63,842 nt of DNA, filler included, from Jimgerdemannia flammicorona (GCA_003990765.1; 3 parts of 3 records of this genome joined end to end with filler, not necessarily neighbours in it); one strand, 5' to 3'. Counted from the first letter of the whole stretch, positions 4,853-63,842 are shown. Notes: generated from the sequence alone by a model not told the origin. Numbers and translations: made by a program.

Positions 4853-4888
<36 letters not shown>

Positions 4889-17747: not shown

Positions 17748-17842
17748 CCTTCTCTTCTCTTCTCTGCTTCTCTACTTCCCTTCTCTTCTCTCCTTCTCTA
17801 CTTCTCTCTCTTCTTCTCTACTTCTCTCTCTTCTCTCTCTTT
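17748..17842 (+). repeat. CT-rich pyrimidine tract upstream of the F-box gene
   Basis: Imperfect (CTTCT)n/(CT)n run ending ~30 nt before the ATG at 17872. Such tracts are common in fungal promoters and 5' UTRs. Confidence 0.8.
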
Positions 17843-17871
17843 AGTCCAACAAACACCCACTACCCAACCCA

Positions 17872-19583: not shown

Positions 19584-20897
19584 AACTGTCCATCTTTTCC
19601 GCAACCTTCGCCAGACCTCAATCCAGATGTCCTCTACGAGATCTTCCATTTACTGATCCCCCAACCCAAAGTGTTTCCAATCGACCTCTTTGCCGTCTCC
19701 TTCGTCTCCCGCTCCTCACATGCCTCCTCCTGAACGACTGGAACCTCCAACGCCTGTTCCTCCCCCTTGACTTTCTCGAGTTTGTTCGTCTTCAAGATCT
19801 TCTTGAAGAGTCACGCCTTCTGGGATTAAACGATGGGGAACTCGTCCGGGAGATCCACATCGACTTGGAGGCAGCCCTCGTTCTCGAGGTCCTACCTAGC
19901 CCGTCAACTTATGATAGCTTTGATGGGGTATGGCGTCGAGGTCGCTAAAATGTTGATGATATACCATCGAGGTCGCTAAAGTATTGACGTTGATCATGTC
20001 GATGGCTCCCAACTTCAGGACCCTTTCACTCAGCTTCCCCAACGCCAAATGCGTGATGGAAGACTTCGCCGACTTCTACTCCCGCATCGCACCGCTGTGC
20101 GTGGGAATAAAACAGCTTTCGGTCGAAAACCGCTTATCGTACGTCGAGTACCACATACATCTCCTCCTTCTGCACATACCAAAGCTGGTCGACATCCAAT
20201 TCACCAACGACACAACTAGCTGCTGTCGCGACCGCCCTGAAGCAGCACACACGCATCGAGCGCGCCCGCTTCATCAGCTGCAGGAGCCACACCCTCCACC
20301 AGTTCGTGGTCGCCTGGCCCTCCCTCCGCGAATTCATCATCCGCTCGAGCTGGGTCAACCCCCCCTTGGAGCTCTTCGAGGCTATCTCAAACACCTGCCC
20401 CCATCTCCAGCTTCTCATCTTCGCCTTTTGCAACCACGATGGTGGCTTGAACGCTTTTCTAACCACATCGCGACTATCCTCGCCCGATGCCCCGAGCTTG
20501 AGTACCTTGACCTCGAGTCAAGCTTGGACATGATCGATCACACCGTGAAGGCGGCAATGCGGCTGGGACGCCGGCTGAAGTACGTGGATTTCAGCCACTG
20601 TCCCACCATCGGGACCAGCCGTGGGCGTCCGTCGAGGACTCGTGGCCCCAACTTGAGCGCCTCGAGTTCAACGAGTGCTACAGGCTTCCACGCGAGCTCG
20701 TGGAGAAGGTGGTGCCGGCGCGCCCTATGCTCGGCGCCGTCACCCTGCCTGGCAATTCAAACTACGATGACGGGATCAAGGTACTGCTTGAGACTCATGA
20801 CTTTGTGTTGGAGGACGGGGTTTGGGAGAGGGTAGTCAATGACCCATGGCAAGATTGCGATGCGGGAGAGAGTGAGAAGGGGACAGTCGCGCTGTGA
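19584..20897 (+). pseudogene. Frameshifted F-box/LRR paralogue
   Basis: LNPDVLYEIFHLL...DLFAVSFVSRS then a TGA (~19731), with no nearby ATG. LRR-like segments (MAPNFRTLSL, WPSLREF, CPHLQLL, CPELEYLDL, LKYVDFSHC) are spread over different frames (ORFs 19984-20835, 20306-20533, 20700-20897). Confidence 0.75.
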
Positions 20898-21240
20898 TGA
20901 TACTTGTCCGATTTATCGTAGATCAGCATGAGAGTTCAATTCCTCACTCCATCCCCGCAAGGTTTTGGAGTACTAACCCAGCACCTCAAATATTGAATTT
21001 TTCATAAAGCACGCGCTGAATAATAATAATTTTTTCTTCTTCGTTCACTGTACTCGAAAAGACAGAATTACAAAAAGAGTCATGAGAGAGAGAAATAAAT
21101 GAGAGGAAATAAAAATAAATATGCAAAAACAAATACAAGCAGGCTAAATAAAATAAAATAAATAAAAAAAATGCGAGGTGGGTATTATGTGTGTGGGTAT
21201 TTGGTAGCATTTGTCAAACCAGACAACAATTCCAAGGGGG

Positions 21241-21340
21241 NNNNNNNNNNNNNNNNNNNNNNNNNNNNNNNNNNNNNNNNNNNNTTAATTAATTAANNNN
21301 NNNNNNNNNNNNNNNNNNNNNNNNNNNNNNNNNNNNNNNN
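21241..21340. other. Assembly gap with artificial TTAATTAATTAA linker
   Basis: 100-nt N-run with a central six-frame-stop 12-mer, the same construct as 42546-42645. Confidence 0.95.
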
Positions 21341-22157
21341 GGTTGCGGAACAAACGTGGTTTAAATCCTTGTTGCTGCATGGAAACTCGGGTGGTCATAT
21401 TTTGGAGGGTGTGTGCGTGTTTGGGAAGACAACAGGGAAATGTGGAGAACAACGGATCGTATCAGATTTTCTCCTTTTCTTGGTAGATACGCTGGATCCG
21501 CCATTTTGTCATATCTATACGATCTTGCACATCATGTTCGTGAAGATGACGGTTATGATTTTATTTTGATTCGCTCTAATCAACTCTGCCGTCATGTTGT
21601 AATCATTAACTCTCCAGTCCGTGCAGAAGATTGTCAAATTCATCGAGGCCGAGAACAAACGAGTGTATAATCAAGAGGGGTTGCAAATATCAAATCCAGT
21701 CAAGGCTGCATGGCTGTTTGTAAGTTCTCTATTCTCTTGCTTTTTTTCCTCCTCGTTATTTTTGCCCCTGCAATGGGGGTCTTTTGGTTGAAGCACAAGC
21801 CGCACGAATAGTGTGGTTGAAGCGAGACGCATAGGGCCTTTTGGGTTATTTATCGTGTGATGGTTGAGTTTACTGATTCGGTATTTTCTACGCACAAATT
21901 AGCTCGAGTTCGAAATGGTGTAGACGGCCGGTTCCTGGACTCGCTCGGGTGGGGGACGGATTTTGAGATTAATACGTAAATAGTTCCTCACAGCGCGCAT
22001 TCATTCCATGCATGAAGACATTTCCAACACGCATCTGTTTCTGTGTTTCAATTAATTTAACCACACTGACGTGACTGCCCATGTGTGGTGTGACATCTAT
22101 GTCACGGTCATTAAATATACACGTCGAAGCCACAAGTCCCTCATCGCGCCGTGATCC

Positions 22158-24455
22158 ATGGCTGAACAACTCCTGCCGCGTACCTTCTACAGAATCAACA
22201 ACAATGGCACAATCTACTACATCCAGGCCACCTGGCACATCACCCACATTCTAATAGACCACTCCGATTCCTCAGAGCCTGTCTGCAGCTTGGTCTTGAC
22301 CGACTGCACATCATTCTGGGAGAAAACAGGTGCGCGAAATACTATCTCGCCCCTATTGGAAATTGATATTGGTGCCCATATGTGACCAACGTGTACCACT
22401 TCCAAAAAGTTACCCTGGGCGACTTCAAGCAGATGCAGGTCTCAGGTGTTGACAGCGCGACCTATGCACGCCTAATCCGCGCAGCCTTGTCAGGTGCCGA
22501 AGAATACGAGCAACACCAGTTTCTACGCGAGATTGTTATCCTCGCTGGTGAGGCCGAGGTAATTACCGAGTTATAATCTCTCCAGCTACGCGTTCTGCCA
22601 GATTCGAATATCTCATCGATTCATTTCTTCAGGTCATCTGGCGGACGACGTTGCAGGGTCTGAAGGTAATGCCTCCAAGCGCCTAAAAATTACTAGTCAT
22701 TTTTATTTTATTTTATTTTTTTTATTTTTTTGTTGTTGCTGTTACATGGACTGGTAGGAGTACACGTGGCTTGTATTTGCTAACTCTCCTGTTCTTGCAC
22801 ACTCCGCAGTTCAAGCTCGCCACCCTTCGGCTGCACGTTGTCGAACCCGACGGCACGCCCCAAAGGTGGCGCGAATGGCTTGATTATTTGTTGACCGAGC
22901 GCGTCGAGTCCCAGGTAAAGACCATTCTTTCACGACGCGCCCTCGATGAAATGTTGGCGTCCTGACGTCCACTCTTGTTACCTCCCAGGAAGGCGCGCAA
23001 GCGCTGAGGTACCGCGTGGAGGACCTGACGTCGGTGAACACTGAATTGAAGAAGCAGCTGGAGACGCTCGAAATCACCAAGCTCGATGCCGAGAACGCGC
23101 TGATGACCAAGGTATGCCTACATACTTTTCCGTGAAAATGCTGCACATCGATTGACGACGTTTCTCCCGCCCTCTTCATGTAAGTGCATTGCTAAATTTA
23201 ATTCCGACGCACACCAGTTTAAGGACCTGCTAAACGCGAAGAAACGCAAGATCAAACTCTTGATGAAGGCGCTCGAGGCCGCTGGTATGTCGCTTTTCGA
23301 CTTCCATCGAGGATTTATCTTGACCTTGGTTTCGAACCCACTATTTAGGAATATTATTTTAACCTTGTTACATCTTTGTATTAGGCGCATCAAACGAACC
23401 TCCGGCGGAGGCGTCGGAAGTGGTTGCAGAAGAAAATTTGGAGTTAGTCGAGATTGAAGAAACGGCGAAAAAGGGGTCTGTTGTCATGATTTCGATTTGT
23501 TCAGTGATTCCTTTATGCTCCTCCGGCTCACATTCGTTTACCACTTCAAACAGCCGCAAACCCGCAAAGCGAAAGCGCGGTGTGAGCGAGGTCGCCGCAT
23601 CTCAAGACGCGTCACAGCCCTTTCTACCTTCACAACCGATCGACCTGTCGACGACGACGGCTGACCACGCGACAACGGTCATCACCGCCCCCACCACTAG
23701 CAAGGCCGACAAGCTGATGGCGCGTGCGAACGCTGCCGCGACCTCGTCCAAAAAGCCCAAGCTCGAGTCCGCGAGGGAACGCTCGCCAACGGCCAACCGG
23801 CCCGCCACAGAGGATGAGGAGATGGGCCCACCGGCGATGGATCTTGGGCTGGAGAAGGGCAAGGGCAAGGAAAAGGAGAAGACATCTGCGCGGAGCCAAG
23901 TAGCTGCTTTCGTAGACGAGGAGCCGCCGTCGTTGTTGGGGGAGGCATTTCAGTCCGCGCGGGCCCCGGTGATCAAGTCGAGGGGGTGAGTAGGCGTATT
24001 TTGCTGATAGGTTTTGTTGATGCCCGCTCGGGGCTCATACGATGATAGGTGCGAACCTGCTAACATCGCGCGCTGTTTCCGCATCTCACCCAGTCGCGGC
24101 AGGAGAACCACGGTCACAGTTGAAGAGGAGGTGGCGCCCTCCGGACGCGCCGCGACCGCCCCTGCTGCGACTGCTACAGGAACCGGGCCCGCACTCGCCG
24201 CGATGAAGTCAAAACAGAAGCCTCCGTCGGGTGGCACGATCCCAACGTGAGGTTTCAACTTATTTTGATTTTGTCCTTCGCATCATAAGGGTTTCGGCCG
24301 TGTGTGACTCTTCTTGCCTGAAATCGTCTGCTTTGGTGTCTTACTGATGTTCATGTTTTTCATCCCCATCGTACAGTCCCCGCCGCACGCGGTCGTCGGT
24401 ATCGATGGCCAGTAGCGGGAATGACTCGCCCAATTCGTTGCTGCGAAAGCTTTGA
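22158..24455 (+). CDS. XRCC4: XRCC4-like non-homologous end-joining protein (about 10 exons)
   Basis: GT-AG exons approx. 22158-22329, 22410-22558, 22633-22665, 22810-22914, 22989-23111, 23218-23284, 23385-~23474, 23554-~23985, 24094-~24246, 24377-24455. Head domain with LVLTDCTSFW, then a coiled coil ending ENALMTKFKDLLNAKKRKIKLL (matches the XRCC4 ligase-IV-binding motif F..vLNeKK.KIr.L), then a low-complexity tail. Confidence 0.8.
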
Positions 24456-25556
24456 CTGGCCAAACACTGATTGACCTCGTTGGCGCGGATCACTTTGAAA
24501 TACCCTGGCCACGTTCATTCCGTGATGTTATTTGCAGTACTCGTGATAGTAAAATACCGTCCTTTCAAGGTGCTCGTGAATATAGTCGGAACATTATGGT
24601 TTGAAGGATAGGTTAGGGAGAAGGCGACGGAAGACGCGTTTCAAGCTGCTAGCGCCATTCTGGAATACAAAAAGTGTTAAAACCATCGTGTAATGTTACC
24701 AAATTATGCAACATAACTTGCAGTCATATTCAAACAGGGCAAGAGATGGCAACAGGTTCCGTTGACAGTAACTCCAAACATAATATATACATATTTTACA
24801 TAAATCTGAAACCAAATAAAATGTACCAAATCTTGTTGGGAACCACTCTTATCTTAAAGCTTCACGCATTCACCCATTGTCGCGCAACTTTTCGTCATCA
24901 TTATCCGTATTGTTCTCGTCGAAAACGAAATCTAACACGTCATTCAAGATGGACACTCGTTTGCTAATTGCTCGGCCAGTCTACAATGCTGGATGGGTTC
25001 GTGAACATCGACTCGATTGCTCGCCGCGATATTCACTGCCACAGTGATGGTACATGCCATCAATCGTCGCTTGAACAGGATTGCAAGACCCAAGAGACAC
25101 GTGCACAAAACATACTTCGTTTCTCATGGCCTACCCATCTTTCCTGACCACAATGACATTAATGATGGATGAGTATCGAGACAAAACGGACGTCTGGTGC
25201 TAAAAAAATTGGTTGCAGCTCGTACACCTCCATCGCTCACCTATACTGTCCATCTACAATGTCCAACATAATATTGAAGATAAAAAAATGATTCAGATAA
25301 TATTTGGATAATATTTAGAGCAATTGGAAGTGAAAAATATCTGAAGACCACCAAAAATCCAGACACATGCATGCATAAATTGTATTTATATACAAGCTGT
25401 TTCAACATTCAGTCACCAGCTTACCAGCAATAGAAAAAATACATTCAGATAGAACAGATGTTATCAAAATAGTAAGATAATTGTGAGCCATTCATGAAAA
25501 ATTAGGATATATCAACTGATTTTGCTACCACTAATCTAGTATATCAATATGAGAAT

Positions 25557-39971: not shown

Positions 39972-41118
39972 TATAAGTGTACAACCTCTAAGCCACCAAA
40001 ATCACATGTCATCCTTAGAACTAATTTGGAAACCACATGCGAGACTATAAAACAAGTTACTGAAGAGATCATCTGGTTACACAAAATATACCAGCAAGTA
40101 TGAGAACTCACTACCAAGATACAAAAATACTAGAAGAAGTACTATAACCATAAGACTGACTCCAAACTGCTATAACTAGTTTGGTATATGGTACTATTAC
40201 AAAAGGAAACTGAAAGTACCAAAATCAAATTGAGACAAGAAGAACCCTATCTCATCTATCAAAAGGTTCATGAACTATACTTATTAAACTTAAGACCAAG
40301 ATATACCACAACTATATAAAACCTTATTACTTAGCAGAAGTAAAATATATTTGAACAACTCCATTTGCTCTATCTATATCACCTCTGTTGGAGAGTGACA
40401 GATACTTCATCTGAACTCAAGAAAGCTGACATCATTAAAACCAATCTCAAGTCATCCATATGACAGATATTACTATTAGAAATTGCCTTGAATTATAGAA
40501 AATATCATTTCCAAGAGGTTCGAAACCCCAGCCATAACATTGAGAGTCCTTGTCTTAGACAAGGATGGCCAGTCCTCACAAATGTACCAGAAGACCAAAA
40601 AAAAAAGAGAATCAAGACCTGTTATCCTTGTATAATCACCGCCACCAAGGACAGTCTTAATCTTGCAAGAGATAAAAGTGATAATATCTTGAAACTAATG
40701 ATGTCAGAAGTTAGAAAACTGCTCAGACTTTGCCAGTGATGATGTCATCAATAGTGATATCATCAAAGACTAACCAGACAGTATCTAAATCTATAAATAG
40801 CTTAGCAGTCATAGTATAGTTAGATTAGCCTTGTATAATATAACTATAAACTGACTCAGTAGTCAGACAATCTCTTGATATATCAGATCACACTTGTACT
40901 ACGTAACTGCATTCCGACTCAGTAAGATACTTAGTGCTACATCCATATTCAGCATAGCTCAGATAGCCCCTCACTAGTATAAATACCCCCTCTCCCAGAT
41001 CTCAGAATCTCAGACTTAAATACTTGAACAGACTTGAATACTTGAATAGACTCAAACACACAAGAACATTTCTGAATACTTCTCCACAATATTCCTTCAT
41101 ATAACTACTCCTAGTATA
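39972..41118 (+). mobile_element. Partial LTR of the dUTPase chromovirus family
   Basis: Starts TATAAGTGTACAACC (decayed TGTAAGCACACAACC) and is collinear with the 54059-55554 and 62079-63569 LTRs until cut at ~41118. Confidence 0.88.
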
Positions 41119-42545: not shown

Positions 42546-42645
42546 NNNNNNNNNNNNNNNNNNNNNNNNNNNNNNNNNNNNNNNNNNNNTTAATTAATTA
42601 ANNNNNNNNNNNNNNNNNNNNNNNNNNNNNNNNNNNNNNNNNNNN
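42546..42645. other. Assembly gap with artificial TTAATTAATTAA linker
   Basis: N-run with the central 12-mer, the same construct as 21241-21340. Confidence 0.95.
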
Positions 42646-44835
42646 TAGTTGGTGGCACTTGTAACAATCATGTCTACTGGGATGGTAGCTCCTCCTATCT
42701 TGATGGGGACTTCTTGGATTTTGCCAAGGGGGGTAGCTCATGTACCATCTGCTGTGATATAGACCATCTTGGTGGACTCTTCAATGTCCCAACCTAGGCA
42801 GTCAATTGCCTTCTTGCTTATGAGGCATCCTCTAGCACCAGTATCAATGATGGCATTGAAGATACAGTCTTCGATCTGGCAGGGGGTATAGGTCAATGTC
42901 TTGTGCTGGTCTTCAGATTCTTCACCTGAGTTTTCAGATTCTTCTTGTGCATTGTGAGCTTCTACAATCTTGTACTCTTGATTCTTGACAGTAGTTGCAA
43001 GTCCTACTCTCAACTGTTGTCTGAAGGCAGGGACTTCAGCTAGCTACCCAAAAGTGACATTGATCTTCTGTTCCTTGAGGTCCTTGTAGATGTCATACTG
43101 GTGGATCTTGGTCTTATACAGCTTCTGTTCCTTCTTGCTCTCACTTTCTCCTGAGACTGGAGTAGTGCCTTCTATAATTTGGCAGGCAGCCTCATCTAAC
43201 TCTATGTCTTGATCAATCTCCTCATGTTGGGTCTTGCTTTGAATAGTGATAGCTGGAGTCTTTTTTGGTCTTCCAACTGGCTTGCTGTTGCTCTTTTTAT
43301 CATAGGGCTTGGACCAGGTTCTGGTATCTTCAGTAGCAGGGTAGAATTCGAGCTCCTCATAGTATTCTTCATCATCAGTGTCACCGATCTCCTTGATGAC
43401 TACTGCATTAGTTTGTTCTCTAGTTCTGCTAGCATTGCTTGGTTGGGCTTTGTGTCTTGTTTCGGTCATGCAACTCTTTGCATAGTGTCCTTTTTCTCCA
43501 CATCTGAAGCATGTGATATTACATTCTTCTATAGCAGCTGCAAATCTCTGCACTGGTCTCCTGTTGACACTTCAGACTTCTCTAACAACATCACCAAGGT
43601 ATGCAGTCATCTTGGCAAACTGCTTGGCAAGTTCTTCCACTGGGTCAGCTTTGGCTATCTTGGGGGTAGGAGGGATTGGTTGTCTGTTTACAACTGTGGC
43701 AAGTAAGATACTAATTGGCTTTGATGGCTCCATCTTTATTCCAGTTATTTTCTCCATTGAGTGTTCGGCAGGGTGTCTGGCAGTTCAATATCTCTGTGCA
43801 AAGACCACTTTCTGATCAAGAGTCAGTGCAGCTGGAGTAGACCAAATTTCTAGGGCAATTTCAGGGTGAACTCCTTTGAGGAAGGTTGAATCCACTATTT
43901 GTTCCTTAAGGTGGTCATCATAGCCAGCCAAGACAATCTGATGGCAGATTTGGGTATAGAATGAGTTGAGATCTTCACTAAGTCCCTGGCAGATAGTATT
44001 GAGTTGATCCTTGAGAGCTTGCTTGATCTCTTTGGTATAATATGTTGTTCTGAGGAAGGTCTTCATGTTGGCAAGTTTGGCTGCACCAGCATTAGCAATG
44101 GTGGCTGCATTAAACTTATCTCTGGCAGGTCCTCTGAGACTGACTAGTAGAAGGGCCAATTGAGCATCCACACCAAGGGCTCGTATGGTGGCGAATTGTT
44201 CAAAGTCTTCAATGAAGGTCAGGATTGACTCTTTAGTAGTATATCTATAGAATGTGGGGGGGCGCATTTCTATCTTGTCTTGAATTCTTACAGGGGTGAC
44301 TCTTGTAGTCAGGGTAGTTGTTGTAGGGGTTATTCGTTTTTCAGCTTGAAAGTGAGGGATTTGTCTTGAATCACCAGCCAATGGGCACCAAGTTGTCATG
44401 TAGTGGTCACTGAGTCCTTCAAATATGCCAGATTCTCTTCAAGGTATATCTCTTAGACTAACTCAAGTTTGTTATAAGCAAGTTCTTATTGGAGTACCTT
44501 CCCAAGGTCTTATAGTCCTCAAACTTCTTATCTTTAACTGTCTTGTTATCTCTTAGATTGCTTGCAAGAAAGTGTGTGTATTACACTGAGAGGAACTGAC
44601 TTTATTTCAGAGAAAATAAGAGAGATATTTATACAAAATATAATTCAATAGTTGCTAAGATATAAAGCTAAATATAAATTCCAATAACTAAAACTACTAA
44701 GTTCCAGGGCTGGCATTATTTAGTGTCACATCAAAATACCAGTGCTGGAATAATTTTGCATTACCTCAGAATGCCAGTGCTGGCATTATCCAGTGTTACA
44801 TGAGAATACTAGTGCTGGCATTATCCAGTGTAACA
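42646..44835 (-). mobile_element. 5' part of a second Ty3/gypsy family (LTR, PBS, gag, CCHC, protease)
   Basis: LTR 44394-44835 bounded TGTTACA...CATGACA (likely decayed TGTCACG...CGTGACA). PBS-like TGGTGCCCATTGG at 44378-44390. Gag 43785-44399, knuckle CFRCGEKGHYAKSC, protease IIDTGARG (42738-43013). Continues into the gap. Confidence 0.85.
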
Positions 44836-47060
44836 AAGAACTTAGAGCAGAAAGTTCAGGATTACGAGGGCTTCATCATCATCATCACTGAAGGAGATGA
44901 GATCCATAAATTTGTTGTTTTCACATGCTTCGATGTCACATGAGATGATGTCATCAATGACATCATAACGTTTGGCTGTGGCAGAGAAATTGGGGACAAG
45001 GTCTGGAGCTCTCCAGTCTATGAAGTTCTCTTCCACAAAATAAGAAACAAATGTGGGGTCTTGGGGAGATCTAACCTGGATGCTTGGGCCTTAGAATACT
45101 GAGATCAATCCTTGTAGGAATTGATCTGGGTTGTTCTGAAGGATAGGGTACCAGAAGTCTTCTACTTCTTTGCTGTTGAGGGTGATAGTGGACTGGGCTT
45201 CTGTAGCCACCCTGGCTTCTAGTGCATTGATACGGCGGGATGATAGGTCTCTGAAATCTGAGACTCTAATATACTCTAAGTTGGGGATCAACCATAGTAC
45301 ATGTCTGAAGATCTGATGGATCTTCCTAGCTATCCTTGTTTCGCATATATCCATAGGAGTGGCATCTTGTAGCTCTTGGGTACTGGCCTGTGGGAACTCC
45401 TGGCAGAGGAGGTTTTCTATTTCATACTCCTGCCACATTTGGAGGCATTCGGTAGCAATGGTGATCCTTGTTTCCATTTCGTGGCAGTAGAGAATAAAGT
45501 GATAAGGGTCTATAGTACCCAGGTTGACACTAGGAGTCCTTCTTGAGCAGGTCCTCATGGCTCTTCTGATGTCTTGGAACATCCTTTCCCAACTGAGATA
45601 CCTTAGTGATTCCTTGACCTTGAGATTTGGCAGGCAGCAGGCATTTTGTTTGTGGTAAGTCTTTGAGCTATTTTGGGATTGGTGGTTCTTGTTGGTTGCT
45701 GCTACTGCAGTTCCTTGATCCTTCTTTTATATTCTTCAGGATGCTCATGCTGTGGTCACAATGACTTACAGTTGGTCATCATTACTCATCTCATATGCCA
45801 TATGATCTTCTTGTACTCTGATCTGGTGGCTTGTAAGGAAAGGCTGTCTCCTGTACTGATGTCATCATTCTGGGGTCACCATTACAATATATCACTTTAA
45901 TAATAGCTTAAGTAATTCATTTTCTGCAGATGATTTTGATGGACTTTTGTCTAGTATTGTATAGTAGGACTTTGATTTCACCTTTAAATCTCTGGTTTAT
46001 AACTCTCCCAGCTATACAGAGTTTCTCTTCTCTGGCCAGACTACTTCTTTTTATAAGATAGATATAGATTCCCTTAGGTACTTCTATTCCAATACCTGTA
46101 CTGATAGTTGCTCACTTGTCTGGTTCAATGATTACTTCTATACTAGAGTAGAGGTTATACATAGCTAGTATCAGATTCATGAGCCTTGTCTGAAATTTTT
46201 ATAGCAATGTGGAATCTCTTGATCTTGATTTTTTCAGAAGTTCCTTTAGACTCATCTCTTATCATAGTAATAGTATAGGAAAAGAATGGTCCTTTGTTTG
46301 TATTAATCTTCTTATCAGGATATTTGCAAGATATATGTTCTCTCTTCTTATAGTGAAAACATACTTCTTCTTCATGAGTTCTTCAATTTTCTTATTAGAC
46401 AGTTTCTTAAATCCTCCTGATAGTCTTGAGGACTTATTTTGTAATTTGTACTTCTTTTTGAATTGATGTCATTTGTCTTCTCTGTTGTTGTTTCTGTTAT
46501 CTTTTGGTCTTTGAGCTATAAGGACAGTGCATGCTCAGATAACAGCTTGTCTTAGATATCATTACTTATATAGGTAATTATAGAGTTATTCTTGCTCTGA
46601 TAATTATCTAGAGATGGCATCAAATAAGACAGACAGCTCAGGTTCTATTTACTATCTATTCTGTGGTTGTATTCTGCTCCTATAGTGTTCAGGAGAGTTT
46701 TTAGTCTTATAGTAAATGCCTCAAGGTCTTCTTTTTCATCATTATAGAATTATAGATTTCTGAGCTTGGTTCTAGCTTTGACAATATGGGCAGTACTATG
46801 GAGCTACTGAATGATTAGCTCTTTTAATCTTATAGTGACTGGGTGGACTTCATAGTTAGGGTAATCATCATCTCTATTACTTATAAGGATTTCAACATGA
46901 GTTTCCTAGGTGAAAGAATATATTGATAGGTTGTATCACTACTGGACAGCTATATCTATGAAATGTATAGTGATCTTTTCTACTTGTGAGCTTGTGGTTG
47001 TATAAAGGTCTTCAATTTCATATTATATATTATTTTTAAGAATATTGTCTAAACTTTAGT

Positions 47061-52903: not shown

Positions 52904-54058
52904 CTGTTGGTCTGAACTTTAGTTGTCATTCCAACTATTGGCATGATAGTTGGTATTAGCTTTTCCTATAAATGTTATTACTTAGTCTGCTTTATCTTTA
53001 AATGGAGTAAGGTGGATGTCTTTTGTAAGCTTATTTATTTCAATACTAAGATAGAGAGCTTGAGTAAGTATAGCTACTTAGTCAGCCAATACTGCTATCT
53101 TGTCATTGACTGATATCATTCTGCTATCTATATTGTCTGTTTGATGGGATAGTTGAGGTTTTTCTTCTTCAATTACTATTGTATATTGATTGTGAGTTAG
53201 GGCTAATTCTTCTATGATATTACTAAGATGGGTAAGTCTGTAGGCTGATAGTTTTGATGGATTGATTATTGGGTCTACTATAATCTTGGGTAGGCTTGAT
53301 GTCCTTTATAGTAATTCTATAATAGTACTGGGGCTACCAAGATTAGGTTTGAGGGTTTCTTCAATTATTCTTCTAGATCTAGATGATGTGATAAGAATTC
53401 CACTAGGTTAAATAACTTGTAGATCTTGTTGCTGAATTATTTTTGCTTATGTATAAAGAATTCAATAGTAGAAGTAGGATTTCTTCTAGTAGGTATAGTA
53501 TTCTTTAAGTTCAGAAAAGCCTTGGCCTTATAGTAGTAATCATTCAAAAGAAAATTCAGAAAATGTTCAGTTGCAGTTTTGATAGATTTTTATATATATT
53601 TCTTATGAAAGTGATTACTAACTAGATTGTTGAAACTCTTCTTAAGTTCTGAGATATAAGAGACTTCTTTATTGAGTGCAAGGAAGGTATTGAATACTTC
53701 TTGGATTATTTTGTTATTGAGTTTGTTAAACTCATCTTGGCTGATGTGGGTTTCAGTCTACTTGGTAATGATTCTATTAGATTCTTCAGCTTAGATCTAG
53801 AAAGTATTCAGAGTGAAGGTATTCCTTGGCTATTACTATCAATATTGGTAATATTGATCTATCTGATTTTTTATAGTATTTTTGAAGAAGAGTTGCTCAT
53901 AAGTGGTAAGAAACTGTCTGCTATTATCAAATTATAATAAAACTATATATTGTTAGAATTACTATATTGCAGATAATCAATGATTACTATCAGCTCTGAG
54001 TTCTGAGTTCTTGAGAAAGCATGAAGTTCTAAATTATCTAATATGGTAGAACCTAAGT

Positions 54059-55554
54059 TGTAAGAGAGTTGCTTTTTAGAGTAACCATTATGTAGTTCTG
54101 GAAGGGTTTTCTGAAAGTTCTGGATATTCTGGAAGACTGTTTTCTTATAATCAAGATCAATTTCATATAGAGTATGTCCTCTACACTTATTGATTTCAAG
54201 ATCAGGTTGACGTCTCAACCAAAGTCCTTTTTTAGACTAGTTCTGGATGTTCAGGATTTTCCATATTTTAGGAAGTTCAAGAAACTAAGACCAGCTTAGT
54301 TGAATTGGCGTATCGCTGCAGACAATACCCAATTAGAAAATTTCGTGATAGGGTTAGGAGTGGGACCTAACAGAGAGCAGATTTACTTAAGAGTGGTTTG
54401 TGGGTTATTAAATAGGTTTATTTACTATTTATGATATTGCTATACTAGGAGTAGTTGTGTGAAGAGATATTATGGGGAAGTGCTCAGAAGTTGTATTCAG
54501 ATTGTTCAGATCTGAGATTCTGAGGTCTGGGGGAGGGGGTATTTATATCAGTGAGGAGCTATCTGGACTATGCTAAATATGGATGTAGTACTAAGTGCCT
54601 TGCTGAGTTGGAATGCAGTCATGTAGTACAAGTGTGATCTGACATATCAAGAGATCATCTGACTACTGAGTCAGTTCACAGTCACGTCATACAAGGCTAA
54701 TCTAACTATACTACATATGACTGCTAAGCTATTTATAGGTTTAGGCACTATCTGGGAAGTCTTTGATGACATCACTATTGATGACATCATCACTGGCAAA
54801 GTCTGAGCAGTTTTCTGGCTTCTGACATTATTAGTTTCAAGATGTCGTCACTTCTATCTCTTGCAAGATTAAGGCTGTCCTTAGTGGCGGTGGTTGTACA
54901 AGGATAACAGGTCTTGGTTCTCTTTTTTTTTGATCTGCTGGTACATTTGCGAGGACTGGCCATTCTTGTTTAGAGTGAGGGCTTCCAATGTCATGGCTGG
55001 GGGTTTGAACTTCTTGGAAATGATATTTTCTGTAATCCGAGGCAATTTCTAGTAGTAATATCTGTCATGTGGATGACTTGAGATTGGTTTCGATGATGTC
55101 AGCTTTCTTGAGTTCAGATGAAACATCTGTCACTCTCCAATAGAGGTGACACAGATAGAGTAAACAGAGTTGTTCAAATGCATTTTGCTTCTGCTAAGTA
55201 ATGCGGTCTTGTATAGTTGCAGTATATCTTGGTCTTGAGTTGATAAATACAGTTTGTAAACCTTTTGATAAATGAGATAGGGTCTTCTTATCTCGATTTG
55301 AGTTTGGTACTTTTGATTTCCTTTTGTAATAGTACAGTACACTAAACTAGTTATAGTGGTTCAGAGTCAGTCTTATGGTTGTAGTACTTCTTCTAGTATT
55401 CTTGTATCTTGACAGTGGGTTCTTGTGCTTGCTGGTATATTTCATGTAACCAGATAATCTCTTCAGTAACTTGTTTTATAGTCTCACATGTGGTTTCCAA
55501 ATTAGTTCTGAGGATGCTATGCAATTTTGGTGGCTTGGAGGTTGTGTGCTTACA
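54059..55554 (-). repeat. 3' LTR (~1496 bp, TGTAAG...CTTACA)
   Basis: Direct repeat of 62079-63569, preceded on the minus strand by the polypurine tract AAAAAGGGGAGAGT (55555-55568). Confidence 0.93.
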
Positions 55555-55987
55555 ACTCTCCCCTTTTTAGCTTTTGACATCCTCGTCGGGGTCTTCTAAT
55601 TTTATTCTAGTGCTATTACACCATTTGGAAGGTCAAAAGTCCAGTAAAGTCCATTTTTTCAGAAAGTGGCATACTCATAGTACAGTTGCCTAATGTATTG
55701 GATTTACATATTAAAGGGTCATATGTTCGATGCCGTGTACCAGAAGTGATTCTGATATCATTCAATACTGGAGAATTTCCTCTAAGGAATCTTCTTAAAT
55801 GTCTATGCCTCATTTCCCACCAGTGGTATGGGGAGAATAGGCTTGCTTTCAGTTTTGTTATTTTTCTAGAGGGTCAGTATCCTTTTGTTCTGTCTTGCTG
55901 AGTTCTTGATTAGGTTCATGATAATTATAATGTTCAGGAGGGTAATATATGCTATATACTGATAGGTGTTGGAGTATTCCGATTTCA

Positions 55988-58900
55988 GTTGTTCAAGAAA
56001 TTATATTCCTAAACTAAGTCAGTAGCATTCTGGAGATTGGTCTTGGATTCCCAGATTGCATTATAGATTGGGTAATCTTTCCATTTGACAAGGAACTCTG
56101 GGTGGTTCTTGTTACCACATTTGTTGAGAATTTGTTCAACTTCATACTCTTCTTGGTCATTAATAATGACAGGTACAGGTGGTTCCATGGTTCGGTTTGG
56201 GAATAGGTCATTGTCATTTTCATTATATTGCTTGAGATATTGGACATTGAAGACTGGGTGAATCTTAATGGTATCTGGTAGTACCAATTTGTAGGAAGTA
56301 GGAGAGACTTGTATAATAACTTTGAATGCTCTAATGAACTTGCTGTTTAGCTTTGTAGATGGTCTGTGCTTGAGGTTGTCAACTCAGTATTCTTGGATGT
56401 CTAGTAGAACATTTTCTCCAATATCAAAGGTTTCTTCTCGGCAATATTGGTTAACATACTGTGACTATTGTTCTTGAGCTTGCAATAAATTCTCAATTGT
56501 GATCTGGCTTAGATTACATATTCAGAGTAAGAATTCTTCAATAGCTTCAACTGTGGAAGGTTCTTCAGTAGTTTGGATGAGTGTCAAAGGAGTGTTTGGG
56601 TTTTGTCCAGTGTTAGCAAAGAATGGAGTCATTCCAAGAGAGGCTTACTTGCTGTTGTTGTAGGCAAACTTGACTGCAGTGAGGTGTTCATGCCAATCAT
56701 CTTGTCTGTAGGAGATATAGTTCCTCAGTATTTGTTCTAGAGTTCAGTTCATTCTTTTGGTTTGGCCATTAGTTTTGGGGTAAAAGGCTGTGGATAGTGC
56801 AAGTTTTGTTCCAAGGTGTGTATGGAGGGCTTTCCAAAAATGGCTGGTGAATTTCGGGTCTTGGTCACTAATAATGATCTTAGGAAGACCATGATAGTGG
56901 AAGATGTTGTTAAACAAGAGTGTAGCTATGTCTGGTGCTGTTGTAGTAGTGGTAGTAGGTATAAAGTGGGCTTGTTTGCTAAGATAATCCATAAAGACAA
57001 CAATTGCATCTTTCCTGTTCTTGGTTTAGGGTAGTTGTACAATGAAGTCCATAGAGATTTATTCCCAATTAGTAGATGGTACTGGGATAGGGTGGAGTAG
57101 ACCAGGTTTTGCTAGTGTTGAGGACTTGTTTCATTGGCAGGCATTACAGAAAGTGATGTAGGTCTTGAGCTAATCTGCCATGCAGGGCCAATAGAAGTTC
57201 TGGGAGATAACTTCATAACATTTATCAAATCCTAAATATCCAGCTATAGGAGCATTATGACATTCAAATAGGATAGTCCTTCAGAGGTCTTGGTTGTTTG
57301 GAACATACAATCTGTTCTTGTAGTAGATAGCATTGTCCTTGAGTTGGTATTGGTTGTACTGGGTATGCTTGTTAGCATTATTACTGTTCAGGATTTCTCA
57401 GAGTACTTGAGCTTCCTTATCATCAGCACATGCTATGATAATTTGTTCCATGATGGAGTTTGTAACCAGGGTGAGAGTTTGGATAACTTCTTCAATTAGT
57501 GGTCTTGAGATTGCATTGGCAACAATATTTTCCTTGCTAGAGCGATACTGGATTTCATTGTCAAAGTTGGTGAGAACTTTCATCCATCTGGCTTGCTTTC
57601 AAGAAAGTGTAGCCTGGGTCTTGATGTTGACTAATGACTTGTGGTCAGTTAATACAGTGAAGTGTACTCCTTCTAGGTATAGTCGCCATTTGATCAGAGT
57701 GTCTATGATGGCTAACATTTCCTTCTCGTGAGTTGCATAGTTGATTTCGGCATCATTGAACTTATGGGAATGATAGGCCACAGGGTGTCCTTCTTGCATG
57801 AGCATGGCTCCAAGAGCTAGGTCAGAGGCATTAGTAGTGACTTTATATGGTAGGGCAGGATTTGCCACTTGAAGTACTGGAGTGATTATCAAGGCATCTT
57901 TCAATACTTGAAAGGCTGTATCTTGTTCAGGTCCCTAATTTACAAGATTGTTGAAGTCTTTCTCTTGTTTTGTGGTCCAGGGTTGTTCTTCTTTCTTGCT
58001 ATGCTTGGTCATTTGGATAAGGGTGGTAGTGATTTTGGTGAAGTTGGCAACAAAATGCCAGTAATAGTTTGCTAATCCCAGGAATGACTGTAGGTCCTTC
58101 AGCTTCTTGGGTCTGGGCCAATCCTTAATTGCGGAGATTTTGCTGGGGTCTACTTTGATTCCATTTGGAGTAACAATGTGTTTAAGGAATTGAATTTCCT
58201 TCAGGAGAAATTTGCACTTACTGAGTTTTGCAAAGAGTTGGTTTTCTTGGAGTTTCAGTAGTACTAGTTCAAGGTGTTCGAGATGTTCCTCTAGAGTTTT
58301 GCTGAAGACTAGAATGTCATCAATATAGACAATAACAAATTTGTCCAGATATGGATGCAGAATAGTGTTCATCAGTATCTGGAAGATTGCTGGAGCATTA
58401 GTTAAGCCAAAAAGTATAACCAGGAACTTGAAGTATCCATAGCAGGTTTGGAAGGCTGTCTTGTAGATGTCTTCTTCTTTCATGGCAATTTGCCAGTAAC
58501 TATTTCATAGGTCAAAAGAGCTCATGAATTGTGAGTTGGTAAGCCTATTGAATATTTCATCAATTCTGGATAGTGGGCAACAGTTCTTGATGATCTGTTT
58601 GTTAAGGTCATGGTAGTCAATACACATTTGCAGGTCTTCTCCTTTCTTGACAACAAAGAGGACTGGTGCACCAAGAGTGATACACTGGGTCTAATGAATC
58701 CTTGTTCTAGGAGTTCATTGATTTCCTTCTTGAGTGCATCAATTTCTCTTGGAGACATGTGGTAGATTGACTTGAAGGCTGGTTTTGCATCTGGAATAGT
58801 CTTGATGGTATGGTCTACTGTTCTTTTGGGAGGTAGGCCTTTTGGGAGTTTTTTTGGGAATATGTCTTGGAATTTCTGGAGTAGTGGTCTGATGTGACTA

Positions 58901-59425
58901 TCAACTTTGGAAAAATCTTCTTTAGAGTTCTCAGGTTCTCCTTTGGATGAGTAGATGGAGATGGTGGAGAGAGGGCATTTCTTGGCTAATTTCTTGAGTT
59001 GTAGCTTATTGATGTGGGTGATCTTTGGTCCAGAGTCACTAGAGTTGAGTGGGTCCTTTTCGTCTTGCAGTTTGAAGTTGTGGCATCCTTTCTTGATAGT
59101 TAGAGAATGGTTTACCCAATTGATCATGAGGTTCTCTTGTTTCAACCATGGAGTCCCAAGGATGATTTTGTTGTCAGAGAGTAGTATGATCTGGAGGGTA
59201 ACATATACTCAGTAGTCACCAATTCAGAATGGTAGATTGCAGACTTCCTTACTAATAATATGTGAGGTTTCATCAGCTATGGCAACTGCTTGAGTTTGTT
59301 ATACCAGAGAGGTGAAGACCTTGAGTCTGTTGGCTATCTCTTCATTGGTAAAGTTGCCTGAGGTATTACTGTCTATCATAATCTTAACAGGTGCTCAGTT
59401 GATAAAAGCTTTAAGTGTAAGCAGT
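55988..59425 (-). pseudogene. pol: pol: protease, RT, RNase H, integrase, chromodomain
   Basis: IMIDSNTSGNF (PR). KTAF...FGLTNAPAIFQ...VYIDDILVFS (RT). TNASDLALGAML...NYATHEKEMLAI (RNase H). IISDQDPKFTS...YPKTNGQTKR (IN). EYEVEQIL...FLVKWKDYP...WE (chromodomain). Multiple stops. Confidence 0.92.
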
Positions 59426-59644
59426 TTGTCTGATCCAATGGTGGTAATTTCGGTTGTAGAAATTTTCCTTCAGTTGGTTCTTCTTTAGGTCAGTTCATTG
59501 ATACAAGAGAAACAATCATCAATCATTTGGAAAGAGTACATTCCAATGTTATGTGGACATCGGCCACTTGGTACATATCCATCTTTGATTTTCTTGTAGA
59601 ATTGTTCTTATTTGTTCATAGTAGGTTGGGCTGGGGCCTTGTTT

Positions 59645-60050
59645 GATGAGCCAAATCCTTTGGATCCTCAGATGGTGGGCAGTAGTTCAGGGACTTCCTT
59701 GACTGTCAGAGTTGACTCAATTTTTTCGAATAGGATCTGGATGATGCAGAAACCAATAGGGATCTTGAAGGGTATCCAACTATGGTTTTGGATCAGAACA
59801 ATGATTTCACCTGTATAATCTTCATCAATGACTCCTCTTTCTACTAAGAGTCCTTTCAATACTAGGCTGCTGTGACAACATATTCTTCCAACATATCCTT
59901 CAGGGATTTGGATACTGATTTCTGTATAGACTTGCTTGACTTCTTGATTGGAAACTATAGCTTCTTTGGCTGCATACAGGTCATATCCAGCTACTTTTTG
60001 ACTTTCTTTAGTAGGGGTCTTAGCAGTTTGTCTTAACTTGACAAAGTCTA
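59645..60050 (-). pseudogene. dut: Trimeric dUTPase domain of the retrotransposon polyprotein
   Basis: All five motifs are recognisable: AGYDL; GRICCHSSLVLKG; GVIDEDYTGEI; CIIQILF; TI*GSKGFGSS (the TGA plausibly from CGA). Confidence 0.92.
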
Positions 60051-60129
60051 GTGTTCTGGTGGTCAGGTTATTGAGGTGGTGCAGAGTGGTAACCATTGCT
60101 TGTATTGCTGTTCAGGGTTTTCGGTTGGG

Positions 60130-61750
60130 GCAGGCACTGGCCATATATCCTGTCTTTCGGCAATAGAAGTATGCTCCACTTCTTCAAAGTTCATTCCTTT
60201 CTCCTTCAGTGAGTTTCTTGAAGGTACTCGGCTGAGTAGGTTCATGATTTCTGGGTGTCTATGAAGTGGATGTTGAGGGAGCTCAGGATGTTTCATACTT
60301 GGATTCTTCTTTCTTGGTCTAAGTCTTTTCCTTATTGTTAAATTGTCTTTGGGGCAGAATTGATCCAGCTGTTAGGATTCACTTGACCATAGTCTTGATT
60401 CTTGCCAGGCACCATTGTTGGTGATCACAACCAACTGGGCAGCCTTGTTCTCGGATTTTTCTAGTAAGCCATTCAGGTAGTGCATTGAATAGATGATCTG
60501 CTCTTATACCATTTTGTGCTTCATCATTGGCAATATATCCTAGGCCAACAGTGTTCAGGAGTAACTCGAGTTTTGTACAGAAGGTTTCAAATTCTTCTTT
60601 GCCATGTACATCAAATTTGAGATTGTGGAGTTTTACTTGAGATTTAGCAATTATGGTTTTGCTGCAGTATTGAGAAATCATAAGTTGTTTCAGTCTAGGG
60701 GCTGCAGGATGGGCTCCATATCTTGGGGCATTATTTACTGCATTCTGAGCAACTACTGCAGGTCAGGTATCCTATGTGAGGGGTTTTTCGGGAAGGGTTT
60801 GCCACCATTCTTCAGTAGGTCCTTGGAAGAATGTAACAACTTAGCGGACATAGGCTGTGGTGGTAGCAAAGAGTTGTTCCAGAGTGTGGTCTTGATTATT
60901 TGTCAGAATGCGGTCAGCAACTCACTCATTGGTCCATTGATTGGCTTCGAAGTTAGTATCAACTACACTAATGAAGCTTTGGACTTCTTGTGCAGTACCA
61001 TTGAAGATAGGTAGGCTCAGATTTTTTATAGATTGGATCTGTTTGGCTAGGGCAGTAATGGTTGCTACTATTATTGCTATCTGAGCTGTAAGGTCTAGAA
61101 TCTGTTGGTTCACTATGTTGTTTACTGGAAGCAGTTAGACTATTAGTAGTGGTATTACTGATACTACTTGAGGTACTGGTGCAGAGTGTGATGGGGTTCT
61201 TTGGGTCTGTGTGAGTTGCTGGAGTAGTAGTTGTGGGTCTGGAGTAAGGGCTTGATAGATAACTGTTTGTTGTTGTGTAGGTGTATTCTGTCCTGATGGA
61301 GGTACTTCTCCTTCGGTAGTGTATCCAGGATCGAATTCACTGAGATACTCCTCCTCCTCTTCAGTTTGGTCTCTATGTAATTGGGTTTGCTCGGCATCAA
61401 AGTAGATGGAATCAGTTGTATATCTGATTTCAGATAGATTTAATTCAAAGTCAAGTTCAGGTTCAGTATTGGTTTCAGATTCAGGTAGGGCTGTAGCAGA
61501 GCCTGCTTCTGGTTCAGAATCAGGTAGTTGATGAAGAGTTTCTCTAGCTTCTTCTTTAAGAATATGGCAGGCCTTGCTATTCTGGAATTGGTAGTATAAT
61601 GCAGTCTTGGTCCTGGTATGGTAAAAGTCAGTAGAGTTGAGCCACTTGGCTATAGAGGCTTGGGCTTCATGAGGAACTAAGGCTAGAAAGACTGCTGCTG
61701 GTTGTCCTAGGTTGCTCGGATTTGTGGAGCTGACAAAACTCTTATTAAGA
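60130..61750 (-). pseudogene. gag: gag with C-terminal CCHC knuckle
   Basis: LPIFNGTAQEVQSFI and capsid-like segments (ORFs 60922-61113, 60379-60681). Knuckle YFYCRKTGYMASACP, decayed from CxxCxxxxHxxxxC. The start position is uncertain. Confidence 0.75.
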
Positions 61751-62062
61751 AGAGTAAAGAAGGCTTCAATAAGACCTTCTTCATCTTGACTTACTGGGTG
61801 TAGTGCAAGGAGTTTAGTGAATAGGGTTTCACCTATTTGCTGATTTAATTGGAGTACTTCTTTCTTTGAGTGAAGTTTGTCCCACTTGTTGTAGGTGTGG
61901 AGGTCAAATTGTCCTTGTACATTAGGTTCAATTCTCTCTAGATTGTCAGATGGTTCAGGATAAATTCCAGTTCAGAGGTTGGGCTTTATACCAACTTGTA
62001 GGAATTCTCAGAAGGGTTTGTAGTGGGGTGAGAAAGCATCTTGAAGCAGAATTGGATTGTAA

Positions 62063-62075
62063 ACTGCTGCTACCA
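62063..62075 (-). promoter_or_regulatory. Primer-binding site, probably initiator Met tRNA
   Basis: TGGTAGCAGCAG begins 3 nt after the LTR end CTTACA. TGGTAGC is complementary to the ...GCUACCA 3' end typical of eukaryotic initiator tRNA. Confidence 0.7.
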
Positions 62076-62078
62076 AGT

Positions 62079-63569
62079 TGTAAGAGAGTTGATTTTTAGG
62101 GTAACTATTACATAGTTCTGGAAGGGTTTTCTGGAAGTTCTGGATATTCTGGAAGACTGTTTTCTTATGGTTAAGATCAATTTTATATGGAGTATATCCT
62201 CTACACTTATTGATTTCAAGATTGGGTTGATGTCTCAACCAAAGTCCTTTTTTGGACTAGTTCTAGATATTCAGGATTTTCTGTATTTCAGAAAGTTCAA
62301 GAAACTAAGACCAGCTTAGTTGAATTGGCATATCACTGCAGACAATACCCAATTAGGAAATTTCGTAACAGGGTTAGGAGTGGGACCTAACAGGGAGCAG
62401 ATTTACTTAAGAGTGGTTTGTGGGTTATTAAATAGATTTATTCACTATTCATGATATTGCTATACTAGGAGTAGTTATATAAAGAGATATTGTAGAGAAG
62501 TGCTCAGGAGTTGTGTTTGGATTGTTCAGGTCTGAGATTCTGAGGTCTGGGGGAGGGGGTATTTATACCAGTGAGGGGCTATCTGGACTATGCTAAATAT
62601 GGATATAGTACTAAGTGTCTTGCTGAGTTGGAATGCAGTCACATAGTACAAGTGTGATCTGATATGTCAAGAGATTGTCTGACTACTGAGTCAGTTCACA
62701 ATCACATTCATACAAGGCTAATCTAACTATACTATGGCTGCTAAGCTATTTATAGATTTAGGCACTGTCTGGGTAGTCTTCGATGACATCACTATTGATG
62801 ACATCATTACTGGTAAAGTCTGAGCAGTTTTCTGACTTCTGACATCATCAGTTTCAAGGTATTGTCACTTCTATCTCTTGCAAGATTAAGGCTGTCCTTG
62901 GTGGTAGTGGTTGTATAAGAATAACAGGTCTTGGTTCTCTTTTTTTTTGGTCTACTGGCACATTTGCGAGGACTGGCCATTCTCGTCTAGGGCAAGGGCT
63001 CCCAATGTCACAGCTAGGGGTTCGAACTTCTCGGAAATGATATTTTCTATAATCTGAGGCAATTTCTAATAGTAATATCTGTCATGTGGATGACTTGAGA
63101 TTGGTTTCGATGATATTGGCTTTCTTGAGTTCAGATGAAGTATCTGTCACTCTCCAATAGAGGTGATACAGATAGAGTGAACAGAGTTGTTCAAATGCAT
63201 TTTGCTTCTGCTAAGTAATGAGGTCTTGTATAGTCACAGTGTATCTTGGTTTTGAGTTGATAAGTGTAGTTCATGAACCTTTTGGTAGATGAGATAGGGT
63301 TCTTATCTTGATTTGAGTTTGGTACTTTTGGGTTCCTTTTATAATAGTACAGTACACCAAACTAGTTATAGCAGTTCAGAGTTAGTCTTATGGTTGTAGT
63401 ACTTCTTCTAGTATTCTTATATCTTGATGGTGGGTTCTTGTGCTTACTGGTGTATTTTGTGTAACCAGATAATCTCTTCAGTAACTTGTTTTGTAGTCTC
63501 ACATGTAGTTTCCAAATTAGTTCTGAGGATGCCATGTGATTTTGGTAGCTTGGAGGTTGTGCGCTTATA
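62079..63569 (-). repeat. 5' LTR (~1491 bp)
   Basis: Starts TATAAG (decayed TGTAAG) and ends CTTACA. Contains TATAAATACCCCC and is collinear with the 3' LTR. Confidence 0.93.
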
Positions 63570-63842
63570 TAAGAATTACTTTCATATTCTTGCTTTAGAA
63601 GAGGCTATACTTATATTCCAAGTTAATTAGACTTGAAATTATTAGTAAGTCAGATCTGAGGTTTCTGTGATAAGAATACTACTTTAATCTTATATTGTGG
63701 AAAGCAGAGCTGAGGTTATAATTCACTTAGTACAGAGGATATTTATATATATCTATAGGCTAACTTTGAGATTATACCTCTAGAAGATTATAATTTAATC
63801 TTTATATATATCTACTATAATATATCAGCTTAATAAAGATAA

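Follow-up and report, generated by a model that had tools for sequence, protein, structure and literature searches.

A decayed fungal Ty3/gypsy chromovirus with a dUTPase domain between zinc knuckle and protease

Results

Structure of the element

The window, that is, the whole stretch of DNA analysed here (63,842 nucleotides, filler included), carries on its minus strand, at positions 54059-63569, a Ty3/gypsy chromovirus of 9.5 kb that is bounded by two LTRs of 1.5 kb (named copy 1) and, on its plus strand, a second, partial copy (named copy 2; Table 1). When the window was compared with itself by BLASTN, direct repeats of 90.8% identity were detected at 62075-63567 and 54055-55552. The LTRs start with TGTAAG (TATAAG in the 5' LTR of copy 1) and end with TTACA, and they are flanked by a candidate 5-bp target duplication in which four of the five bases agree (63570-63574 and 54054-54058). 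The short segment next to the 5' LTR resembles, we presume, the 3' end of a tRNA and is a putative primer-binding site.

Between the LTRs, Pfam matches follow one another in the order dUTPase, RVT_1, RT_RNaseH, rve, SH3_Tf2-1, and Chromo, the last of these lying after SH3_Tf2-1 on 56009-56383. The protease was placed between dUTPase and reverse transcriptase (RT) by our own profiles, and RVP_2 agrees on the read-through. A shift of frame separates protease and RT near 58505-58521. The pieces of the gag region gave no match in Pfam; by eye, its C-terminal portion looks like gag from two relatives, P0007 and P0006. No env was seen in copy 1. The LTRs, the order protease (PR), RT, RNase H (RH), integrase (IN), and the C-terminal chromodomain therefore identify 54059-63569 as a Ty3/gypsy chromovirus, as an earlier reading of the sequence alone had proposed. 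As a whole, the window is a mosaic of hypermutated, nested repeats, and it contains, outside the two copies, a third remnant of a dUTPase (45845-46165).

Table 1. Features of the two element copies, with the evidence for each
Feature	Coordinates	Strand	Evidence
5' LTR of copy 1	62079-63569	-	self-BLASTN; ends read from sequence
Primer-binding-site-like TGGTAGCAGCAG, TGG start, 3 bases past 5' LTR	62064-62075	-	read directly
gag region, frame shared with knuckle and dUTPase, 5 in-frame stops	60382-61971	-	ORFs, frame count
Decayed CCHC zinc knuckle YFYCRKTGYMASAC	60130-60171	-	translation
dUTPase domain, five motifs, one stop ahead of motif 5	59626-60042	-	Pfam PF00692, own profile, PDB matches
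45-residue Cys/His module FYKKIKDGYVPSGRCPHNIGMYSFQMIDDCFSC, putative zinc finger	59491-59613	-	profile iE 2.1e-23
Aspartic protease, decayed, MIDSNTSGNF ... IILGTPWL	59107-59433	-	RVP_2 E 8.8e-6; own profile iE 7.1e-39
Reverse transcriptase and RNase H	57581-58648	-	RVT_1 E 4.8e-23; RT_RNaseH_2 E 5.9e-29
Integrase core, Tf2-type SH3, chromodomain	56003-57289	-	rve E 3.8e-7; SH3_Tf2-1 E 1.7e-13; Chromo E 4.8e-11
Polypurine tract	55556-55568	-	precedes 3' LTR of copy 1
3' LTR of copy 1	54059-55554	-	self-BLASTN; ends read from sequence
Copy 2, partial: part of 5' LTR, gag, knuckle, dUTPase, Cys/His module, protease; ends abruptly at 4853	1025-4853	+	self-BLASTN
Copy 2 knuckle CFYC*KTGYIASAC	3655-3696	+	translation
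Copy 2 dUTPase, split over two frames	3784-4198	+	Pfam E 5.4e-14 on 3781-4110, 52.5 bits
Copy 2 Cys/His module	4223-4333	+	profile match
Copy 2 protease	4390-4707	+	own profile

Knuckle, dUTPase, and protease in both copies

A single frame of copy 1, from gag (61971) to 58522, holds the knuckle, the dUTPase, and the protease in this order; within its part 58522-60381 on the minus strand, the knuckle remnant is followed by one TGA stop, the dUTPase, and the protease. In the remnant, Tyr has replaced the first Cys and the His, and the remnant aligns with the intact CxxCxxxxHxxxxC knuckles of the relatives P0003, P0006, P0007, and P0041. The dUTPase was recognized by PF00692 both in its open 147-aa piece (E 2.9e-26, 92.2 bits, cut-off 22) and when read through with stops as X (E 6.3e-28, 97.6 bits, profile positions 3-128 of 129), and by our own profile with an iE of 4.6e-58. 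With such E-values for the dUTPase and the protease, a chance match is ruled out.

We take the five motifs to follow the usual numbering of trimeric dUTPases, with the Asp in motif 3 and a glycine-rich C-terminal motif 5. In copy 1 they read AGYDL, (R)ICCHSS, GVIDEDYTGEI, (F)CIIQ, and GSKGFGSS, and all of them align with those of open relatives. Motif 2 is RICCHSS against RIAPRSS in the relatives, motif 4 is FCIIQ against RIAQ, and motif 5 is preceded by an in-frame TGA.

Copy 2, which is 80% identical to 58970-62819, shows the identical order of knuckle, dUTPase, and protease. The sequence-only reading had claimed a five-motif dUTPase after the knuckle and before the protease in both copies, and the PF00692 matches (E 6.3e-28 and 5.4e-14) bear this out; its further claim that the dUTPase is in frame with the knuckle is true of the ancestral frame and false for the present copies, since copy 1 has nine stops in the 355 codons from the knuckle to the end of the protease and the corresponding pieces of copy 2 have 13 stops and a frameshift. 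The two LTRs of copy 1 differ at 131 sites, 127 of them transitions and four transversions, and host DNA at 10-25 kb has a CpG observed/expected ratio of 1.05, compared with 0.15 for copy 1 and 0.01 for copy 2. Both copies are dead, hypermutated pseudogenes with no present function.

Open relatives and conservation of the dUTPase

A HMMER search with a 620-residue read-through against 1.84 billion representatives gave 25455 matches at E ≤ 0.001. Among the 150 matches listed, we scanned the 44 whose alignment lay in the dUTPase part or in several stretches: the dUTPase precedes the protease in seven and follows it in four, and the remaining proteins have a dUTPase by itself, dUTPases in tandem, or none. 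Further proteins came from two profile searches of a 5.8-billion-protein collection, and 309 were scored in total with our own profiles. A dUTPase is present in 196 of them, located before the protease in 28 (the window's own read-through included), after it in 83, and at the C terminus in four; the proteins were fetched with a dUTPase-before-protease query, so the ratio of 28 to 83 is not a population estimate.

Several relatives are open across the region of interest. P0198, with 87% identity to the window across 394 residues, has no stop and shows the order dUTPase, Cys/His module, protease, and RT. The single ORF of P0311 (1767 aa) comprises, according to Pfam, Ty3_capsid, zf-CCHC (327-343), dUTPase (494-621), RVP_2 (626-743), RVT_1, RNase H, integrase, and Chromo. 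The order is identical in P0317, for which 11 member sequences are listed, as judged from our own profiles and a search for the CCHC pattern. In P0041, the zf-CCHC (8-22) is followed by the dUTPase (81-205) and the protease (223-312), and Pfam finds dUTPase, RVP_2, RVT_1, RNase H, rve, and Chromo in P0203, which is a Phlebia brevispora polyprotein in NCBI. Besides P0198, at least 27 further public proteins have the layout. The view that the dUTPase is a family trait is upheld by its presence in both copies and in the 87%-identical open P0198, and by the cluster of relatives with matching order. Most relatives lack the domain, as had been said of Ty3/gypsy elements: among P0199's 120 best pol relatives, only seven have PF00692. 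A search for longer proteins (1832-5000 residues) returned mostly copia-type and badnavirus polyproteins and not chromoviruses, and a protein atlas gave only weak look-alikes, P0003 scoring 0.79 and a host bestrophin-like exon 0.88.

Open relatives were compared in a 10-row alignment, in which GFGS (motif 5), a Ser in motif 2, and a Gln in motif 4 are invariant and conservation reaches at least 90% for AG.D (motif 1) and G.ID..YT (motif 3), at an overall identity of 30-45%. This conservation of the catalytic motifs argues, at the level of sequence, that the domain has been selected as an enzyme.

A Cys/His module between dUTPase and protease

The segment that joins the dUTPase to the protease contains a conserved Cys/His module of 45 residues. 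An alignment of the module from nine relatives shows three invariant Cys residues and a His in eight of the nine; the module of the window, which stands outside this alignment, has the His as well. Its profile matches 10 of 425 proteins at iE ≤ 1.2e-22, in each case directly after the dUTPase. Weak variants occur ahead of the dUTPase, with an iE of 3e-3 in P0311 and values that are not significant in P0006 and P0202.

Searched against Pfam, the module gave no significant match, the best being the DUF1451 zinc ribbon (E 0.043); against PDB sequences there was likewise no significant match, the best being two chains at E 0.8. The AlphaFold2 model computed from the nine-row alignment has a mean pLDDT of 86.4 and is composed of a helix, a hairpin bearing C19 and H21, and a helix that starts from C34..C37. 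We read this predicted fold as treble-clef-like. No PDB structure reached E ≤ 0.001 in a Foldseek search with the model, the top hit having an E of 5.8.

Phylogeny of the dUTPase and of the pol domains

When the copy 1 dUTPase was compared with all PDB sequences, the best matches (1.4e-19 to about 1e-16) were chains of cellular or poxvirus-type dUTPases. Lentiviral chains, presumably the FIV and EIAV dUTPases, followed at 6e-12 to 2e-10, and 2d4l, which we assume to be the M-PMV dUTPase, at 1.4e-6. A betaretroviral origin of the domain was rejected on this basis: the match to 2d4l (1.4e-6) is far weaker than that to the nearest cellular or poxvirus-type chain (1.4e-19), so the domain does not derive from a betaretrovirus and the shared order is convergent.

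The dUTPase tree (FastTree, 183 rows, 139 columns), in which 75 of 179 forks are unresolved, places the window in a 10-row cluster with a local support of 91. Eight rows of this cluster have the dUTPase before the protease, one has knuckle and dUTPase on a fragment with no protease, and one, P0098, which is the row nearest to the window, has a dUTPase alone. Other elements with the dUTPase before the protease, that of Phlebia included, are placed elsewhere in the tree, and the starred branches force only two origins of this position. Rows of plant and diatom proteins and of copia-type elements are interleaved among the element dUTPases.

The RT-RNase H tree (IQ-TREE, short search) has 40 rows, with 12 of the 27 protease-dUTPase rows sampled; the long-branch P0166, P0196, P0191, and P0156 and 114 rows whose N terminus was too short to score were omitted. 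It contains a split with a support of 96 between the Phlebia group and the group of the window and, on the Phlebia side, a seven-row clade (support 99) in which all three positions of the dUTPase occur. The RT of the window itself sits on an unresolved polytomy beside rows that lack a dUTPase. In AU tests, for which the groups were named after a larger FastTree had been viewed, a single clade of all eight rows with the dUTPase before the protease was rejected (delta lnL 142.7, p-AU 3.3e-6), and a single clade uniting the window with P0199, P0311, P0317, and P0326 was not (p-AU 0.48). On the RT-RNase H tree, a single origin of the dUTPase-before-protease order is thus rejected as far as these sequences go. 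Judged from trees that are built on short domains and on a sample biased by the dUTPase-before-protease query with which all proteins were fetched, the layout arose, or moved by recombination, more than once.

Discussion

Proposed packaging of a dUTPase with the ancestral Gag-Pol

We consider it very probable that the locus holds a dead fungal Ty3/gypsy chromovirus whose ancestral Gag-Pol carried a dUTPase between knuckle and protease, that this domain served uracil exclusion in active members, and that the layout arose or moved more than once. The ancestral element encoded, in a single frame, Gag, the CCHC knuckle, a trimeric-type dUTPase, the Cys/His module, protease, RT, RNase H, integrase, and the chromodomain. 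By analogy with retroviruses, and given the conserved motifs, the dUTPase of active members would be produced within Gag-Pol and packed into the virus-like particle, where it would convert dUTP to dUMP and pyrophosphate beside the RT. The cDNA would then contain little uracil and would be spared nicking and degradation by the host uracil-DNA glycosylase. Retroviral dUTPases are assigned such a role of uracil exclusion in cells with low cellular dUTPase. Placed directly after the nucleocapsid (NC), the dUTPase may, much as in Mason-Pfizer monkey virus, function while fused to NC or be kept on nucleic acid by the zinc modules on either side. A role of the dUTPase in non-dividing cells is assumed in the available text of Novikova et al. 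2010 (PMC2864245).

Alternative explanations

The most serious alternative, which we still find rather unlikely, is a single capture at the root of all dUTPase-bearing fungal chromoviruses, with the various positions produced by later rearrangement or recombination and with many losses, so that no independent capture would have occurred here. LTR retrotransposons recombine during reverse transcription, which counts for this explanation, as do the poor resolution of the dUTPase tree, where only two origins of the position before the protease are forced, and the tight pol clade with all three positions, from which it follows that the position of the dUTPase changes quickly. Against it stand the interleaving of the element dUTPases with plant, diatom, and copia-type rows, the rejection of one pol clade for the dUTPase-before-protease order, and the independent acquisitions argued for in the accessible part of Novikova et al. 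2010 (PMC2864245).

Repeated acquisition or movement of a catalytic dUTPase, which we prefer, is also to be weighed against retention for a non-catalytic job: the domain might trimerize Gag-Pol and so aid protease activation or assembly, or it might work in signalling or derepression, as has been reported for certain dUTPases of phages and herpesviruses. The domain directly precedes the protease, which must dimerize, and its three positions within the seven-row pol clade (support 99) show that it works as an independent module; moreover, dUTPases of this type are homotrimeric, according to the available text of PMC1802613, and the part of a review accessible to us treats viral dUTPases as immune modulators (PMC8961515). 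However, a purely structural role would not need the catalytic motifs, motif 5 included, that are conserved in open relatives at 30-45% identity, and for a moonlighting role there is no datum in retrotransposons; we regard such a job as improbable.

An accidental juxtaposition, in which a host dUTPase pseudogene or a fragment of another element became nested in the chromovirus and is no family trait, is suggested by the nested, hypermutated repeats of the window and by the third dUTPase remnant, but it is refuted by the identical order and frame in both copies, by the 87%-identical P0198, open through dUTPase, module, protease, and RT, and by the full-length single ORFs of matching order in P0311 and P0317, and we give it practically no credence.

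Possible role of the Cys/His module

Of all parts of the element, only the Cys/His module (FY..I.DGY.P.GRCPHGI.MY then C..C) might be worth work at the bench. A speculative proposal, in which we place little confidence, is that it is an undescribed treble-clef zinc finger that would tether the dUTPase to nucleic acid or to the RT in the particle, as the NC-dUTPase fusion does in betaretroviruses. That it lies ahead of the dUTPase in some sister lineages and behind it in others would, in the same proposal, reflect two separate insertions of a dUTPase into one NC-protease linker, in Mucoromycota, a host phylum with no described dUTPase-bearing elements.

Comparison with known dUTPase-bearing retroelements

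The order NC, dUTPase, and protease had been called the arrangement of betaretroviruses, which agrees with the available texts of the GyDB paper, where betaretroviral DUT lies in frame with the protease, on its N-terminal side (PMC2238898), and of PMC1802613, where the NC-dUTPase fusion of M-PMV is homotrimeric. The window element shares with M-PMV and MMTV the knuckle-dUTPase-protease order, the trimeric type, and the presumed exclusion of uracil from cDNA. It differs from them in several respects: gag, knuckle, dUTPase, and protease share one frame (in P0311 and in P0006, one ORF spans them), whereas in betaretroviruses the dUTPase lies in a pro frame of its own, entered by a gag/pro frameshift; the integrase carries a chromodomain; no env was seen; and the dUTPase is nearest to the cellular type (1.4e-19, against 1.4e-6 for 2d4l). 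Convergence with the betaretroviral layout, as suggested by the sequence-only reading, is supported by the cellular-type match of about 1e-19 and by the single gag-pol frame that has no gag/pro frameshift. Judged from these sequence comparisons, the resemblance is convergent and does not mean membership.

Tmt1 of Tuber melanosporum and Juno, Vesta, and TelKA of bdelloid rotifers are likewise Ty3/gypsy-type LTR elements with a captured dUTPase. In these elements, as far as the available text of Rodriguez et al. 2017 goes (PMC5408684), the dUTPase lies between protease and RT (PR-dUTPase-RT in the rotifer elements), whereas it lies before the protease in the window element; Juno has, according to the same text, an extra Zn knuckle after the dUTPase, where the window element has the Cys/His module. 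The rotifer elements are also without a chromodomain, unlike the window element.

Closest in kind are fungal chromoviruses. Novikova and Blinov reportedly described in 2008 dUTPase-bearing chromoviruses of Basidiomycota, including elements of Phanerochaete chrysosporium. In Postia placenta, the available text of Novikova et al. 2010 (PMC2864245) places the dUTPase at the amino terminus of Pol in PosPlaTy3-3, at the carboxyl terminus in PosPlaTy3-4, and between protease and RT in PosPlaTy3-5, and it adds that Phanerochaete and Tuber elements also carry the domain, the acquisition of which seems independent. The novelty of the layout that the sequence-only reading had implied does not survive this record, in which PosPlaTy3-3 is already described, nor the Phlebia brevispora polyprotein in NCBI with its dUTPase-PR-RT-RH-IN-chromo order. 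The layout is one of several positions of the dUTPase in fungal chromoviruses; it is already catalogued for them, and only the host group, probably Mucoromycota as judged from one weak language-model look-alike (score 0.88), may be new. Literature searches for dUTPase-bearing retrotransposons in Mucoromycota or early-diverging fungi found no description, only an Entomophthora genome paper, in which dUTPase and retroviral protease Pfam domains are jointly enriched.

Compared by description only, the window element is, like PosPlaTy3-3, a fungal chromodomain Gypsy element with the dUTPase upstream of the protease, and its subgroup is set apart from the PosPlaTy3-3 group by the additional Cys/His module after the dUTPase. 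The Phlebia element P0203 has the same order and lies across the support-96 split from the window on the RT-RNase H tree; unlike that of the basidiomycete elements, the host of the window element is probably not a basidiomycete. The position of the dUTPase varies between related families of Postia placenta, as it does among the relatives of the window element. With the present element, the dUTPase-bearing fungal chromoviruses gain a host that is probably not a basidiomycete and a large number of relatives from soil metagenomes. The element lends support to the published idea that retroelements acquire a dUTPase repeatedly and at differing points of Pol, the betaretrovirus-like order being a recurrent solution and not a unique event.

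A Cys/His module between dUTPase and protease

In the dead Ty3/gypsy chromovirus (copy 1) and its shortened relative (copy 2), the dUTPase is followed by a conserved module of 45 residues with the pattern C-P-H ... C-x-x-C, which is present in 10 of the 425 proteins examined. The module has no match in Pfam or PDB, is predicted by AF2 to fold with a mean pLDDT of 86, and may represent an undescribed zinc finger.

Features of the repeats, with strand and distinguishing property
Feature	Position	Strand	Remark
Cys/His module, copy 1	59491-59613	-	between dUTPase and protease
Cys/His module, copy 2	4223-4333	+	between dUTPase and protease
Third dUTPase remnant	45845-46165	-	Pfam E 1e-13
Knuckle-like stretch VCFHYKKREHISC	46155-46382	-	directly upstream of the third dUTPase remnant
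Gypsy-type gag, zf-CCHC and protease remnant	42660-44438	-	zf-CCHC E 7e-6
Third LTR-like copy	39972-41118		85-88% identity to the LTRs of copy 1

Other remnants and hypermutation

The third dUTPase remnant is more diverged than the dUTPases of copies 1 and 2, lies in a different frame from the knuckle-like stretch and is probably a piece of a second dUTPase-bearing element family. In the further Gypsy-type remnant the knuckle and the protease are not separated by a dUTPase, and the window therefore contains examples of both layouts. The third LTR-like copy, with no adjoining internal region, probably represents either a truncated copy or a solo LTR. The filler between records, at 21241-21340 and 42546-42645, shows two pairs of N runs, four in all, each 44 letters long.

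The LTR pair of copy 1 differs by 127 transitions versus 4 transversions, and the C-to-T differences mostly precede A. The CpG observed/expected ratio is 0.15 in copy 1 (54059-63569) and 0.01 in copy 2 (1025-4853), compared with 1.05 in host DNA (10000-25000): hypermutation is confined to the repeats.

dUTPase outside Gypsy elements

In the profile search that retrieved the public proteins P0155-P0189, the dUTPase occurs together with the copia-type RT domain PF07727 in 28 of 44 matches longer than 1832 residues, one such protein being labeled Chaetoceros. It is likewise found in P0153 and P0158, both named badnavirus polyproteins, and in P0154 (Camellia lemon glow virus). dUTPase capture therefore extends well past Gypsy elements.
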